A stretch of 64,000 nucleotides of DNA from positions 88,151-152,150 of the forward strand of contig CBDBHH010000005.1 of assembly GCA_965205535.1 (NCBI GenBank). Reading direction: 5' to 3'. The translations under genes and the position numbers were made by a program. The stretch's first letter is position 1. Each line of letters opens with the position of its first letter. The stretch comes from Alphaproteobacteria bacterium. GTDB lineage: Bacteria; Pseudomonadota; Alphaproteobacteria; UBA6615. The notes below the pieces were generated by a model. That model was not told where the DNA came from. It saw only the letters and a list, made by a program, of their open reading frames with translations, and searched no databases. This document shows, one piece after another, positions 2,801-8,285 of the stretch.

Positions 2801-3532
2801 ATGGCCGAGAAAGAGTTCGATATCGCGACCCCTGACGGGGTGATGCCCAGTTTCGCGGCCTGGCCCGATGAGCCCGGGCCCCACCCTGTCATCGTCATTT
2901 ACATGGACGCGCCGGGCATCCGCGAGGAATTGCGCGACTTCGCGCGGCGGATCGCCGGTGAGGGCTACTATGCCGTCCTGCCGGATCTCTACTACCGGCT
3001 CGGCCTGCTGCGTTTCAACCTGGCAGAACGCACCGAGAAGATGGGCGAGATGATCTTCGCCGCCTGGCACAGCCTGACCAACGCGGGCGTGGCGAGCGAC
3101 ACCGGCGCGATCCTTTCCGCGCTGGGCGAGGACCCGGCCGCCTCGGACGGGCCCATGGGCTCGGTCGGCTATTGCATGAGCGGCGCGTTCATCACCACCG
3201 TCGCAGGCCGCTTCCCCGACCGCTTCGCCGCCAACGTCTCGCTCTACGGGGTGTGGATTGTGACCGAGCATGAAGATTCCCCTCACCTGCTCGCACCCCA
3301 GATCGAGGGCGAAATGTATTACGCCTTCGCCGAGCATGACCACTGGGTGCCGGACAACGTGATCCCCGATCTCACCGCCGCACTGGATGATGCCGGCGTG
3401 CCCCACGAAATCGAGACCTTCCCGGGCACAGAGCACGGCTTCGCCTTTCCCCAGCGCCCGGTCTATCACGAGGCATCGGCCGAGATTGTCTGGGGTAAGA
3501 TGTTCGAGCTCTACGCCCGCGTGCTGGGATAG
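2801..3532 (+). CDS. Dienelactone hydrolase family protein
   Basis: GYCMSG nucleophile motif, EHD and HGF catalytic-type motifs, 243 aa. Confidence 0.9.
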
Positions 3533-3626
3533 TACTGCAAATCCCCACCGTCACACTTGCGCTCGCCCGCTCGCCTTGGGACACTCCAAGCCAACGAGAA
3601 CAACCGCATATCCGGGAGAAATCGCC

Positions 3627-4736
3627 ATGGAAACCCGCGCCGCCGTCGCCCTCGAGGCCGGCAAACCCCTGAGCATCGAAACGGTCAACCTGGACGGCCC
3701 GCGTGACGGCGAAGTGCTCGTCGAGATCAAGGCCACCGGGATCTGCCACACGGACGAATTTACCCTGTCGGGCGCAGACCCCGAAGGGCTGTTTCCCGCG
3801 ATCCTGGGCCATGAGGGCGCGGGTGTGGTTGTGGATGTGGACAAGGGCGTAACGTCGGTGAAGAAGGGGGACCACGTGATCCCGCTCTACACGCCCGAAT
3901 GCCGCGAGTGCGACTATTGCACGTCTGGCCGGACCAACCTTTGTCAGGCCATTCGCGAGACCCAGGGCCAGGGCCTGATGCCCGACGGCACGTCGCGCTT
4001 CTCCATCGGCAAGGACCGACTGTTCCACTATATGGGCACCTCGACCTTCTCCAACTACACCGTGCTGCCGGAAATCGCGGTTGCCAAGGTGCGTGAAGAC
4101 GCACCGTTCGAGAAGATCTGCTACATCGGCTGCGGTGTAACCACGGGCATCGGCGCGGTGATCAACACCGCCAAGGTCGAGCCGGGCGACAATGTGGTCG
4201 TGTTCGGTCTCGGCGGGATCGGCCTCAACGTCATCCAGGGTGCGCGCCTCGTCGGTGCCAACAAGATCGTCGGTGTCGATCTGAACCCCGCACGCAAACC
4301 GATCGCCGAGGCCTTCGGCATGACCCATTTCGTCAACCCGTCCGAAGTCGAGGGCGATCTGGTTCCCTATCTGGTCGACCTGACCGATGGCGGCGCGGAT
4401 CACTCGTTCGAGTGCATCGGCAACGTCGAGGTGATGCGCCAGGCGCTGGAATGCTGTCACAAGGGCTGGGGCAAATCGACGATCATCGGTGTCGCCCCCG
4501 CGGGTGCCGAAATCGCCACCCGGCCGTTCCAGCTTGTCACCGGCCGCACCTGGCAGGGCACGGCGTTCGGGGGCGCCAAGGGCCGTACGGATGTGCCCAA
4601 GATCGTCGACTGGTACATGGACGGTAAGATCAACATCGACGATCTGATCACCCATGTCATGCCGCTGGACCAGATCAACGACGCGTTTGACCTGATGCAC
4701 AAGGGTGAGTCGATCCGCAGCGTCGTCACGTTCTAG
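3627..4736 (+). CDS. frmA: S-(hydroxymethyl)glutathione dehydrogenase / class III alcohol dehydrogenase
   Basis: GICHTD, GHEGAG, structural Zn cysteines C-x2-C-x2-C-x7-[17 protein letters not shown]. Start set at ATG 3627 after a GGGAGA RBS. Confidence 0.95.
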
Positions 4737-4897: not shown

Positions 4898-5869
4898 ATG
4901 TCCGAGACCCATCACTCCAAGGTTCTGATCCTTGGCTCCGGCGCTGCCGGCTGCACCGCAGCCATCTACGCCGCGCGCGCCAACCTCAAGCCGATCATGG
5001 TTCACGGCATGCAGCCGGGCGGCCAGCTGACCATCACGACGGAAGTCGAGAACTACCCGGGCTTTGCCGATGTGATCCAGGGCCCCTGGCTTATGGAACA
5101 GATGGTCGAACAGGCCGAAAAGGTGGGCACGAGGATCATGGACGACCTGATCGTCGACGTGGACTTCAGCACCCGTCCTTTCACCTGCACCGGCGATTCC
5201 GGCGATGTTTACACTGGCGACACGGTCGTCGTGGCGACGGGCGCATCCGCCAAGTGGCTCGGCCTCGAAAGCGAACAGAAATTCTCCGGCTTCGGTGTCT
5301 CGGCCTGCGCGACCTGCGACGGGTTTTTCTACCGTGACAAGCCGGTCGCCGTCATCGGCGGCGGCAACACCGCCGTCGAAGAAGCGCTGTTTCTGACAAA
5401 TTTTGCGTCCAAGGTTACCTTGATCCATCGCCGTGACGAGCTTCGCGCAGAGAAGATCATGCAGGATCGCCTGCTGCGTCACGACAAGATCGACGTCGCC
5501 TGGGATACGGTCCTCGAAGAGGTTGTGGGCACCGAAGACCCGCCGGGCGTGACCGGGGCAAAGATCAAGAACGTCAAAAGCGGCGACAACCAGGATCTGG
5601 AAGTGGACGGTGTTTTCATCGCCATCGGCCATGACCCGAATACCAAGGTCTTCCAGGGCAAGCTGGACATGGATGATGAGGGTTATCTGATCACCGCACC
5701 CGACAGCACTGCCACCAACATTCCCGGCGTCTTCGCCGCGGGTGACGTGAAAGACAAGATTTACCGTCAGGCTGTGACCGCCGCCGGTATGGGCTGCATG
5801 GCCGCACTCGAGGCCGAGAAGTTCATCGCCGCACACGAAGATGAAGTCGCACAGGACGCAGCCGAGTAA
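4898..5869 (+). CDS. trxB: Thioredoxin-disulfide reductase
   Basis: GSGAAG, GGQL, SACATCDGFF, GGGNTAVEEA, HRR, AAGDV, YRQA motifs. Confidence 0.97.
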   Translation: MSETHHSKVLILGSGAAGCTAAIYAARANLKPIMVHGMQPGGQLTITTEVENYPGFADVIQGPWLMEQMVEQAEKVGTRIMDDLIVDVDFSTRPFTCTGDSGDVYTGDTVVVATGASAKWLGLESEQKFSGFGVSACATCDGFFYRDKPVAVIGGGNTAVEEALFLTNFASKVTLIHRRDELRAEKIMQDRLLRHDKIDVAWDTVLEEVVGTEDPPGVTGAKIKNVKSGDNQDLEVDGVFIAIGHDPNTKVFQGKLDMDDEGYLITAPDSTATNIPGVFAAGDVKDKIYRQAVTAAGMGCMAALEAEKFIAAHEDEVAQDAAE

Positions 5870-5920: not shown

Positions 5921-6820
5921 ATGGCCATGGATTGGGACAAACTGCGGATATTTCATGCCGTCGCAGATGCCGGCAGCTTTACCCATGCGGGTGAAGCCCT
6001 GCATCTGAGCCAGTCTGCGGTCAGCCGACAGATAAGCTCGCTTGAGGACAGCCTCGGCTCGCGGTTGTTCCACCGCCATGCCCGCGGCCTGATCCTGACC
6101 GAACAGGGCGAGTTGCTGTATCGCACCGTGCATGACGTCTTCGCCAAGCTCACCATGGTCGAAGCACGCCTCACGGATTCCCAGGAACGACCGCAGGGGC
6201 CGCTGAAGATCGCCACGACGGTGGGCCTGGGGTCGCTTTGGCTGACGCCGCGCATCAACGAGTTTATCGATCTGTATCCGGACATCGAGGTGAACCTGAT
6301 CACCACCGATGAAGAGCTCGATGTCTCCATGCGCGAAGCCGATTGTGCCATCCGGCTGACCCCGCCGACCCAGGGTGACCTGATCCAGCGCCGGCTCACC
6401 CGGGTCCACACCCATGTCTTCGCATCGCCTGAATATCTGCAAAGCCGCGGGATGCCGGAAAAGGTCAGGGATCTGGCGAACCACGACCTGGTGGTTTATG
6501 GCGAGAACGTCGCCATGCCCGCACCAAACATCAATTGGCTGCTAAATGCGGTCCGCGACGCCACCAACGAGGAACCCCGCAAGGTTCTGACCCTGAACAA
6601 CCTGTATGGCATGTTCCGGGCGGTCGAAGCCGGGATCGGTGTGGCCGGATTACCGGACTTTCTGGCTCGTGAAGCCAAGAATCTGGTGCGTGTCCTGCCC
6701 GAGCTCGAAGGCCCGGGAAACGATGCGTATTTCGTATATCCGGAGGAAATGCGCAGTTCCCAGAGAATCGCGGTTTTCCGGGATTTTCTGCTGAGCAAGG
6801 TTGCTCAGACCCGCTTCTGA
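5921..6820 (+). CDS. LysR-family regulator, VtlR/LsrB type
   Basis: N-terminus MDWDKLRIFHAVADAGSFTHAG...LSQSAVSRQI resembles VtlR/LsrB, and the position directly downstream of trxB matches the rhizobial trxB-lsrB synteny. Confidence 0.9.
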   Translation: MAMDWDKLRIFHAVADAGSFTHAGEALHLSQSAVSRQISSLEDSLGSRLFHRHARGLILTEQGELLYRTVHDVFAKLTMVEARLTDSQERPQGPLKIATTVGLGSLWLTPRINEFIDLYPDIEVNLITTDEELDVSMREADCAIRLTPPTQGDLIQRRLTRVHTHVFASPEYLQSRGMPEKVRDLANHDLVVYGENVAMPAPNINWLLNAVRDATNEEPRKVLTLNNLYGMFRAVEAGIGVAGLPDFLAREAKNLVRVLPELEGPGNDAYFVYPEEMRSSQRIAVFRDFLLSKVAQTRF

Positions 6821-6861
6821 ATCTCAGCTTGTCGACAAGCGGTTGAAATCAAACAACATAT

Positions 6862-6884
6862 AGATATGCAATTCATGCATATCT
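6862..6884. promoter_or_regulatory. Palindromic LysR-type operator
   Basis: Perfect inverted repeat AGATATGCA-attca-TGCATATCT containing T-N11-A (TGCAATTCATGCA), about 45 bp upstream of a candidate -10 (CTATCT, 6926-6931). Confidence 0.65.
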
Positions 6885-6939
6885 GGTTAACCGTTTTGCC
6901 GTCTCCTCCTCGGAGCGTCGGCGCACTATCTATTGAGTA

Positions 6940-7086
6940 CACACGGTGCAACACGCACCACGCCGCTGGTTTGTCCCTCCCAGTAAACCAGTGGCTTCGA
7001 GGCCCCTGAACATGGCCTCGGCGTCTCCCAAGACGTAACGCCTCCCCGTTCACCTGCCGGGCCCTTCGGGGCCCGGCTTTATTTTT
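6940..7086 (+). ncRNA. AbcR-like trans-acting small RNA (putative)
   Basis: Consecutive hairpins: GCCGCTGGTTT/AAACCAGTGGC with loop GTCCCTCCCAGT; CGAGGCC/GGCCTCG; CGTCT-CCCA-AGACG; then an intrinsic terminator. Two CUCCCA anti-SD motifs, located downstream of the lsrB/vtlR-like gene. 5' end approximate. Confidence 0.7.
7056..7086 (+). terminator. Rho-independent terminator
   Basis: GCCGGGCCC-TTCG-GGGCCCGGC followed by TTTATTTTT. Confidence 0.9.
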
Positions 7087-7158
7087 CGAATATGAGAGGT
7101 TTGCGCAGGCATGCTTTGCACCGCCTGAAGAGGCGCAGGTGCAGGGCTACGCTAATGT

Positions 7159-8136
7159 CTAGCGGAAGTAGGAATCGCCTGCATCGGCCGGATACATACC
7201 GGCGACGAACTCGCCATAGCCATTATACAGACGCGTCGGCACCCGATCGCTCTGGCGGCCGCCGAGCAGCCATTCGGTCGCCTGGCTCCAGCGGGGATGG
7301 TCGATCTCCGGATTGACGTTGGCCCAGAAGCCGTACTCCTTGTCCTGAAGCGACTCCCAGAACGTCTTGGGTTGCTTGTCCGTGAACGAGAAGCGGATGA
7401 CCGACTTGATCGACTTGAAGCCGTATTTCCAGGGCACCGCCAGGCGCAGCGGTGCACCGTTTTGCGGCGGCACCGGCTTGCCGTAGAGGCCTGTGACCAT
7501 GAAGGCGAGATCGTTGGTCGCCTCTTCCATCGTCAGGCCTTCCTGATAGGGCCACGGATACCAGAACTGGCGTAGCCCCGGCATCTCCGCCTTGCTCTCC
7601 GCGATCGTCTGCATCATCACATACTTGGCGCCGGACGTTGGCTTGGCGAGCTTCACAAGCTCCTTCATGGCGAAGCCCGACCAGGGCACCGTCATCGCCC
7701 AGGCCTCGACGCAACGATGGCGGTAGACCCGCTCCTCGAGCTGGACCTGCTTCAGCAGATCATCGATCCCGATCTCGAATTCCTTCTCGACCATGCCGTC
7801 GATAATGATGTTCCACGGTCGGGTCTGGAGCCGCTGGGCGGCGCGCGATATCTGCTTGTGGGAACCGAACTCGTAGAAATTATTGTAGGAGATGGCCTCT
7901 TTCTCTTCCGTCAGCGGGCGCTCGACCGTGTATTTCTCGTTGCGCGGCACCGGGTAGAGGCTGGCAGACGGGTCCGTCGCAGCCATCGCCATGCCGGTCG
8001 GCAATACGCTCGCGGTCGCCGCAACGGCAGGCGCGATGCCCAGCGCTTTCACGATCTGACGGCGATTGAGATAGATGTCCTCGGGTGTGACCGCACTCTC
8101 GGGCAGTTCCCAGCCCCGTTTCACCTTGACCAGCAT
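7159..8136 (-). CDS. msrP: Protein-methionine-sulfoxide reductase catalytic subunit
   Basis: Tat motif NRRQIVK, YNNFYEFG, RHRCVEAW, QNGAPLRLAVPWKYGFKSIKS, YGFWANVNP, HPRWSQATE. Confidence 0.95.
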   Translation of the reverse strand: MLVKVKRGWELPESAVTPEDIYLNRRQIVKALGIAPAVAATASVLPTGMAMAATDPSASLYPVPRNEKYTVERPLTEEKEAISYNNFYEFGSHKQISRAAQRLQTRPWNIIIDGMVEKEFEIGIDDLLKQVQLEERVYRHRCVEAWAMTVPWSGFAMKELVKLAKPTSGAKYVMMQTIAESKAEMPGLRQFWYPWPYQEGLTMEEATNDLAFMVTGLYGKPVPPQNGAPLRLAVPWKYGFKSIKSVIRFSFTDKQPKTFWESLQDKEYGFWANVNPEIDHPRWSQATEWLLGGRQSDRVPTRLYNGYGEFVAGMYPADAGDSYFR

Positions 8137-8285
8137 GTCATTCTCCGTTCGTGACTGCGCAAATCCATGCGCCGTGCCCATACGATGGGGATGCGCACGC
8201 GCGAAAACAAGTCACGGCTGCTTGAAAACCGCCAAACGGAATAAACTAGTTGTTCCGGTGTTACCGCCCGGAAAAAGGGGGGAAA

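Follow-up and report, generated by a model that had tools for sequence, protein, structure and literature searches.

Does the noncoding gap behind a LysR-type regulator gene of an alphaproteobacterium encode a small RNA (sRNA) and, if it does, how is this RNA related to AbcR1 and AbcR2, which together with LsrB/VtlR form one of the best-studied riboregulatory circuits of the plant- and animal-associated Rhizobiales? The question is raised by a stretch of 64,000 nucleotides, hereafter the window, from a bacterium of the GTDB lineage UBA6615 (assembly GCA_965205535.1, contig CBDBHH010000005.1, positions 88,151 to 152,150 of the forward strand), in which an earlier note, made from the letters alone, had proposed a divergent, ~145-nt member or analogue of the AbcR circuit. 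We find that the gap carries a real, unannotated sRNA gene of ~150 nt directly behind the gene pair trxB-lsrB, and that the RNA, although it corresponds to AbcR1 in position and regulation, forms a separate sequence and structure family. On the whole evidence, we put at about 75% the probability that it is an independently transcribed, trans-acting, LsrB-activated sRNA of the anti-Shine-Dalgarno (anti-SD) type whose family is separate from that of AbcR.

A conserved structured RNA gene behind trxB-lsrB

The sRNA gene lies in the noncoding gap between the LysR gene (5921-6820, + strand) and msrP (7159-8181, - strand). All the features that had been listed there beforehand, namely a palindrome and a -10-like element, followed by four hairpins with two CUCCCA motifs, a CCUCCCC and a UUCG-capped terminator, are present where they had been placed. 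The terminator had been said to end about 265 bp past the LysR stop; its stem-loop spans 7056-7077, with a TTCG loop, and the T-tail reaches ~7086, that is 266 nt after the stop at 6820. The RNA of ~145 nt, with hairpins and a terminator, that the earlier note had described is borne out by folding and covariation at a length of ~150 nt, with four hairpins and the terminator. Its parts are given below, where A4 designates an alignment of 68 matches made with R1, the covariance model of the window RNA family.

6938-7087, + strand: sRNA gene of ~150 nt; 5' end inferred, 3' end in the T-tail
6945-6959, + strand: stem-loop 1 (SL1), a 5-bp hairpin, in the single-sequence and the consensus fold; 5 of 5 pairs covary in A4
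6962-6995, + strand: SL2, a long hairpin with loop CCCUCCCAGU, which holds CUCCCA at 6977-6982 (anti-SD seed 1); in the single-sequence and the consensus fold
6998-7020, + strand: SL3, a hairpin of 7 bp whose 9-nt loop is free of anti-SD motifs; in the single-sequence and the consensus fold; 7 of 7 pairs covary in A4
7021-7036, + strand: SL4, a short sequence-conserved hairpin with CUCCCA at 7025-7030 (anti-SD seed 2); in the single-sequence fold
7037-7055, + strand: linker, the site of anti-SD seed 3, CCUCCCC at 7041-7047 (relatives have CCUCCCUGUU); unpaired in the consensus
7056-7087, + strand: Rho-independent terminator with nine G-C pairs, a UUCG loop and a U-tail; 10 of 10 pairs covary in A4

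The segment 6936-7086 folds with a minimum free energy of -70.2 kcal/mol, compared with -46.5 ± 3.9 kcal/mol for 200 dinucleotide shuffles (z = -6.06), none of which is as stable. The second CUCCCA straddles the stem and the loop of SL4. The CCUCCCC of the linker is unpaired in the consensus supported by covariation; the single-sequence fold puts a weak 4-bp helix over 7037-7051. In the whole window, CTCCCA occurs at 8 sites against 33.4 ± 6.4 expected, a depletion of about four-fold that concerns both strands, and two of the 8 sites sit 48 nt apart in the sRNA gene. The model R1 matches the sRNA over its full length (contig coordinates 95088-95237) with 175.8 bits.

Conservation was examined at two levels. 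When 41 related genomes were searched for the gap at the DNA level, 16 of them gave a match, the window's own included: 10 of 11 others of the genus had it, as did 15 of the 24 in the family, but none of 16 genomes of other families. The CUCCCA loops, on whose presence in relatives the earlier note had made its reading depend, are kept: in the genus/family alignment, variation falls in the stems and leaves the CUCCC motifs, the dyad upstream and the CTATCT element untouched. With RNAalifold, 11 full-length close homologs yield the same five helices, with compensatory changes in 14 of 41 pairs. In A4, which is fitted to R1, 94.3% of the cells are paired, as compared with 38-45% when the partners are slid, and 40 of the 41 pairs show double changes; none of 500 shuffles attains the observed values.

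Sequence and structure are constrained differently along the molecule. The SL2 loop motif is invariant within the genus while the SL2 stem covaries, the pairs of SL4 are near-invariant over the 68 matches (five of six identical in 54-62 of 68, the closing A-U in 44), and the C/U motif of the linker is invariant across genera, SL4 and linker both being part of a class-wide 3' signature. Conservation and structure of the element are established on these data: it is a conserved structured RNA gene and not a chance feature.

The LsrB ortholog and its predicted operator

The genes and signals that surround the RNA are the following.

4898-5869, + strand: trxB, which encodes thioredoxin-disulfide reductase and opens the conserved trxB-lsrB pair (TIGR01292, 408 bits; cut-off 343)
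5921-6820, + strand: LysR-type regulator of 299 amino acids, LsrB/VtlR ortholog, best match to the LysR of R. leguminosarum
6862-6893, + strand: predicted LsrB/VtlR-type operator, composed of a perfect dyad (6862-6884) and a conserved extension to 6893
6926-6931, + strand: inferred -10-like element CTATCT, conserved in the genus alignment
7159-8181, - strand: msrP, convergent, on the far side of the same gap

The LysR protein of the window is the reciprocal-best ortholog of rhizobial LsrB/VtlR. Indeed, the R. leguminosarum LysR that adjoins ar15, the Rfam family of AbcR (RF02345), in locus L097 finds it as the best match in the genome, at 343.8 bits (52% identity, residues 1-295), far above the 127 bits of the next match. 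With the LysR alignment we gathered 80 related loci (the LysR-anchored loci), in 72 of which trxB stands directly upstream of the ortholog on the same strand; this synteny is established, and a passage of a published study (PMC7486931) likewise describes the trxB-vtlR arrangement as conserved in the class.

The regulators differ in their cysteines. According to excerpts of a study of A. tumefaciens LsrB (PMC11975290), this protein has a redox cysteine pair, C144/C273, of which C273 is functionally important. In A5, an alignment of 11 sequences, the window LysR keeps the equivalent of C144 (ADCAIRL) and has a valine at that of C273 (YFVYP); with a single cysteine in total, it cannot form the intramolecular disulfide proposed for the A. 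tumefaciens protein. Among the 11 aligned sequences, only the two from Rhizobiaceae have a cysteine equivalent to C273, and several orthologs (Thalassospira, Azospirillum, Kiloniella) lack the equivalents of both C144 and C273. The absence of the pair raises the question of what signal LsrB senses in such lineages.

The predicted operator contains a dyad (6862-6884) with 9-bp arms that form a 9-pair stem around a 5-nt spacer, and it includes T(6867)-N11-A(6879). Its half-sites, ATGC at 6866-6869 and GCAT at 6877-6880, are near-invariant in the genus/family alignment. Conservation covers the box and CTATCT but not the DNA that separates the box from the LysR stop. The centre of the dyad (6873) lies ~65 nt before the inferred start, which agrees with the classical placement of LysR recognition sites. 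The VtlR box is given in a portion of the literature (PMC7486931) as GCAT-N3-TG-N3-T; read from 6877, the window has GCAT-ATC-TG-GTT-A and agrees with it at 6 of 7 specified positions. The R. leguminosarum abcR1 gene (the first ar15 gene of L097) carries the same extended ATGC-N7-GCAT-N2-CTGG with GCAT at -61, and the GCAT of the window likewise lies 61 nt before 6938, where the R1 alignment starts, an offset shared by the close relative L019. The distance from GCAT to a CTATCT-like element is 47-49 nt in 13 of the 14 loci in which such an element is recognizable, and 49 nt in the window. The identity of the box is thereby established.

The strict form of the box has 2 sites in the 3.7-Mb genome, the second of them inside a coding region. 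A strict ATGC-N7-GCAT is present in at least 26 of the 53 LysR-anchored loci that carry R1, the last match per locus being kept; the count is confined to this form, as a looser pattern picked up, in some loci, a palindrome resembling SL1 too. The remaining box sites of the genome lie mostly within coding regions and were taken as chance. A possible second LsrB site, an intergenic ATGC-N7-GCAT-N3-TG (C5:1671489-1671508), is located ~75-95 nt upstream of a gene for a membrane-fusion protein of the HlyD/CusB type.

From the orthology of LsrB, the identity of the box, the -61 offset and the CTATCT spacing, we infer that the window RNA has its own LsrB-activated promoter. Sections of a study of S. 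meliloti (PMC8844928) report that transcription of abcR1 needs LsrB and its box, and that LsrB binds the abcR1 promoter. In the promoter spacer of the window (6899-6925), upstream of the inferred start, a CCUCCUC-type stretch with a possible small hairpin is conserved in the genus; it may be part of a second binding site of the activator, or some transcripts may start further upstream.

The setting is one of redox and detoxification genes, encoding a glutathione-dependent formaldehyde dehydrogenase (3387-4736), thioredoxin reductase (4898-5869) and the methionine-sulfoxide reductase MsrP (7159-8181). The host had been called Rhodospirillales-like and placed outside the Rhizobiales, in agreement with near-identical proteins labelled Rhodospirillaceae or Alphaproteobacteria metagenome-assembled genomes (MAGs).

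Distribution of the family and its relation to AbcR

On the 80 LysR-anchored loci, R1 gave 68 matches at E ≤ 1, of which 59 score at least 30 bits and fall in 53 loci. These 59 matches all lie on the strand of the LysR gene and downstream of it; the nine below 30 bits, including three opposite-strand matches to the terminator only, two weak full-length ones on the minus strand and one cut by a contig end, were dropped. The carriers comprise Thalassospira, Kiloniella, Azospirillum, Magnetovibrio, Tagaea, Dongia, Niveispirillum, Phaeospirillum, Novispirillum, Minwuia and MAGs of Stellaceae, and the carrier genera that were looked up belong to the Rhodospirillales or Minwuiales in the NCBI taxonomy. 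Tandem copies occur, three in L096 (3498-4140) and two each in L021 (4004-4491), L031, L046 and L052; such copies downstream of lsrB echo the abcR1/abcR2 tandem of Rhizobiales. About a dozen of the 80 loci have neither a box nor an RNA directly downstream of LysR (L026, L029, L036, L051, L064, L073, L077, L088, L090, L091 and L093). In L082, L084, L085, L087, L076 and L069, the box is followed by a different CUCCC-bearing RNA that is missed by both R1 and ar15; in the first four of these loci, it lies ~90-300 nt past the LysR stop and carries two CCUCCCCC motifs, one of them apparently in the loop of the terminator hairpin.

In a sample of 151 genomes, one per family across the Alphaproteobacteria, R1 finds a match in 66, whereas ar15 reaches its cut-off in none and gives one sub-threshold match of 32.2 bits. 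The genome with this match (G061:C5:9853-9946) also has an R1 match elsewhere (G061:C13:8285-8397) and is a candidate for the coexistence of both types. When 20 of the 80 LysR-anchored loci were searched with Rfam at gathering score, ar15 was found only in three Rhizobiaceae-type loci, all without an R1 match. Of the earlier picture of a divergent member outside the Rhizobiales, the position outside this order holds; that of an isolated divergent copy does not, as the family is commoner than ar15 in the genomes sampled.

Outside the genome of the window, 40 of 65 best R1 matches follow an LsrB-like gene (49-64% identity) of the same strand at a distance of 85-1339 nt, with trxB further upstream in 33 of the 40 by hand count. 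Four of the 65 have too little flank, and 21 are found in other contexts (e.g., L107, L111, L116 and L129). Among the 25 non-adjacent or short-flank matches, the SL4 core is present in 13, the linker motif in 17 and the upstream dyad in 13; matches unlinked to LsrB mostly keep the 3' module, consisting of SL4 with CUCCCA, CCUCCCUGUU and the terminator.

The window RNA resembles the AbcR RNAs in several respects. Its gene follows trxB-lsrB directly and in the same orientation, as those of AbcR1/2 do, and shares with abcR1 the operator ATGC-N7-GCAT-N2-CTGG with GCAT at -61. Both types have a long hairpin that presents an anti-SD loop of the CCUCCCAGU type, a second C-rich single-stranded motif, a Rho-independent terminator and an Hfq-encoding host, and the loop of the AbcR 5' hairpin (aSD1), UCCUCCCAGU in L097, is nearly the same as the SL2 loop of the window RNA. 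There are also differences. AbcR RNAs measure ~112-121 nt and have three helices, whereas the window RNA measures ~150 nt and has five, so that the single extra hairpin by which it had been said to differ from AbcR understates the distance, the second anti-SD motif being different too. According to part of the S. meliloti study (PMC8844928), the aSD2 motif of AbcR, UUCCCCUC, is single-stranded between the SL1 and SL2 of that RNA; it is absent from the window RNA, whose second motif, unlike that of AbcR, is CCUCCC(C/U)GUU between SL4 and the terminator. AbcR genes form a tandem pair whereas the window RNA is a single copy, Agrobacterium LsrB has a C273 that lacks an equivalent in the window regulator, and the window type ranges over Rhodospirillales, Minwuiales and many unnamed families, AbcR over Rhizobiales.

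Covariance-model searches separate the two types in both directions. At gathering score (40 bits for ar15), a search of the whole window with Rfam 15 yields nothing, ar15 has no match at E ≤ 10 on 6780-7200, and its best match in the whole genome, elsewhere, scores 17.7 bits. As a positive control, the six AbcR genes of L094, L095 and L097, two in each locus and downstream of the LysR ortholog as in the window, are scored by ar15 at 101.8-127 bits; R1, with filters off, gives them ~2.5-3.4 bits. The RNA family is not in Rfam 15 at gathering thresholds. The alternative left by the earlier note, member or analogue of the AbcR circuit, leans to analogue, which is well supported by the ortholog, trxB and the box at -61; membership lacks support, since ar15 does not match the RNA and R1 is blind to AbcR.

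Could the RNA nevertheless be a true AbcR/ar15 member by common descent, so highly diverged that three hairpins (SL1, SL3 and SL4) were gained and the second anti-SD motif was altered? The same locus, strand and order behind trxB-lsrB, the same box at -61 and the near identity of the loops CCCUCCCAGU and UCCUCCCAGU speak for it. So do Rfam clan CL00108, which joins ar15 with suhB/mmgR, a family weakly matched by the 3' half of the RNA (19.4 bits), and the box-linked variants of L082, L084, L085, L087, L076 and L069, which suggest rapid divergence at a fixed locus. In opposition to this stand the failure of either model to recognize the other type (no ar15 match at E ≤ 10, R1 at ~2.5-3.4 bits on AbcR genes), the five helices as against three, the missing UUCCCCUC and the failure to find an intermediate, the loci labelled Hyphomicrobiales (L066, L090, L091 and L093) having neither type; short anti-SD loops, moreover, can arise by convergence. 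We regard common descent as a serious possibility, with odds somewhat short of even.

Other known sRNA families were considered. In a Rfam search of 6780-7200 at E ≤ 10, only weak matches were obtained, all on SL4, the linker and the terminator: SorX (RF02784) with 20.9 bits (cut-off 46.6), suhB/mmgR (RF00519) with 19.4 (cut-off 41) and SorY (RF02651) with 16.2 (cut-off 111). What the window RNA shares with SorX, SorY and MmgR/alpha-r8 is a 3' module made up of a short hairpin, a single-stranded motif of the CCUCCCUGUU type and a G+C-rich terminator, whereas these RNAs have no counterpart to its 5' two-thirds (SL1-SL3). The genomic contexts of SorX and MmgR presumably also differ from its own. 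Matches to Atu_C3 (21.1 bits, cut-off 100), the XIST A-repeat, PhotoRC-I and the L2 leader concern mainly the terminator and were taken as chance.

The cuckoo RNAs (alpha-r14/CcsR/RSs0680) are likewise alphaproteobacterial, with modular adjacent hairpins and anti-SD-like loop motifs. As described in parts of one paper (PMC4615179), they carry CCUCCUCCC in each of 2-4 adjacent hairpin loops and are reported from Rhizobiales and Rhodobacterales; the word LysR does not occur in its text. The loops of the window RNA are instead CCCUCCCA, a 9-nt loop without motif, and CCCA. As none of them contains CCUCCUCCC, it is not a cuckoo RNA.

Transcription, mode of action and meaning

The mechanism that we propose begins with the LsrB/VtlR ortholog encoded just upstream, which would bind the dyad ATGC-N7-GCAT, centred ~65 nt before the inferred start, and activate the sRNA. 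The four hairpins and the terminator would expose three C/U-rich anti-SD motifs, in the SL2 loop, in SL4 and in the single-stranded linker; these would base-pair with target mRNAs at their ribosome-binding sites and repress translation there, probably with the help of Hfq, as AbcR1/2 do in Rhizobiales. A translational repressor that acts in trans through its anti-SD motifs is suggested by the exposed C/U-rich motifs, the AbcR-like loop, an Hfq gene in the host genome (111.5 bits) and the predicted LsrB promoter, taken together.

Of 14 SL2-loop candidate targets with a GGGAG core, 12 were annotated by Pfam. Three of the 12 are solute-binding proteins (NMT1_3, DctP and SBP_bac_1), which is a lead only, and several of the others look like wrong internal starts.

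Several points weigh against an independently transcribed, LsrB-activated, trans-acting RNA. A duplex-energy scan of 6837 SD-plus-start sites with the three seeds, each against 15 shuffled-flank controls, showed no discrimination: seed A has 452 sites at or below -16 kcal/mol, compared with 245 ± 95 in the controls (maximum 440), and seeds B and C are at or below the control means. Open reading frames (ORFs) with at least 9 nt of seed complementarity number 56, versus 30-68 in 12 controls, which is no enrichment. The window box has A in place of T at the last specified position of the published consensus, and the missing equivalent of C273 means that the signal of the window regulator may differ from that of Agrobacterium LsrB. 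With 21 of 65 best matches away from an LsrB-like gene, the linkage to LsrB is not universal in the family. Being fitted to R1, alignment A4 favours structure. Among the sequencing records listed as containing this DNA, three contig entries from a single study, none is RNA, which speaks neither for nor against transcription. A scan of the promoter for the E. coli-type sigma-70 consensus gave no site, a result that is uninformative for an activator-dependent alphaproteobacterial promoter. Transcription and its start, dependence on LsrB, use of Hfq, pairing with ribosome-binding sites and the targets themselves are all predictions from sequence. Finally, no + strand terminator is found between the lsrB stop (6820) and 7056, so that read-through of the trxB-lsrB mRNA followed by processing could also yield the RNA.

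This last point is the core of an alternative in which the RNA is the 3' untranslated region (3' UTR) of the trxB-lsrB mRNA, possibly processed, and the dyad serves LsrB autoregulation or forms a hairpin in the RNA. Besides the missing terminator and sigma-70 promoter, it can draw on the likeness of the 3' module to SorX (20.9 bits for a cut-off of 46.6), which is reportedly derived by processing from the 3' UTR of its parent mRNA. A mere RNA hairpin, however, would require complementarity, whereas ATGC and GCAT are invariant in sequence and match the DNA box of VtlR/LsrB; the distance from the box to CTATCT is fixed at 47-49 nt, and R. leguminosarum abcR1 has the same box at -61. S. meliloti abcR1 has its own LsrB-dependent promoter, as stated in a section of the same study (PMC8844928). 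Moreover, 21 of 65 family members keep the RNA at a site away from any LsrB-like gene, and the dyad lies upstream in 13 of the 25 non-adjacent or short-flank matches. We therefore consider the 3' UTR explanation unlikely, and independent transcription from an LsrB-activated promoter the better account.

A cis-acting or protein-binding element, for example one that titrates an RNA-binding protein or that serves lsrB and msrP jointly as a bidirectional terminator and stability element, would fit the convergence of msrP on the gap and target scans no better than controls. A terminator role, however, needs neither four further covarying hairpins nor three invariant CUCCC motifs; the downstream neighbour is not conserved, the DNA match is limited to the gap, and the family occurs in other contexts too, all of which makes such an element very improbable. 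As for a small protein, the two candidate ORFs present in the mechanical ORF list (6866-7009, + strand, 47 aa; 6805-7053, - strand, 82 aa) are both broken by 1-2-nt indels between close relatives (alignment columns 25, 60-61 and 95-96), which rules out the coding reading, the substitutions being compensatory in stems and not codon-patterned and the + strand ORF having its start within the operator and thus ahead of the inferred 5' end of the transcript.

What does a separate, LsrB-linked RNA family mean for the class? In the literature searched, which leaves most subscription journals outside, no paper joins AbcR with Rhodospirillales. Queries combining LsrB with Rhodospirill... returned, by title and abstract, only work on quorum sensing or plant growth-promoting rhizobacteria, presumably on the AI-2 receptor of the same name, and the match for VtlR with Rhodospirill... 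concerns EipB, by its title and abstract. The 13-nt SL4 signature was not found among the literature matches listed for the motif strings. On the basis of five alphaproteobacterial species, a passage of a 2025 paper (PMC11975290) calls LsrB unique to Rhizobiales. The regulator, trxB, the operator and an adjacent anti-SD-type sRNA co-occur in free-living, largely marine and soil lineages outside that order.

We judge the chances to be even that the assembly of trxB-lsrB, LsrB box and anti-SD sRNA is ancestral to much of the Alphaproteobacteria, with the R1 type widespread and probably older, AbcR/ar15 a lineage-specific derivative or replacement, and a regulator that mostly works without C144/C273. 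If this is true, the printed claim that LsrB is unique to Rhizobiales would be wrong, LsrB would in most lineages sense something other than an intramolecular disulfide, and one uncharacterised sRNA family would rank with the most widespread trans-acting sRNAs known from the Alphaproteobacteria. The covariance model and the signature can serve its annotation, and Thalassospira, Kiloniella and Azospirillum are cultivable carriers. The locus offers a natural experiment on how an sRNA can be remodelled or replaced under a constant promoter logic.

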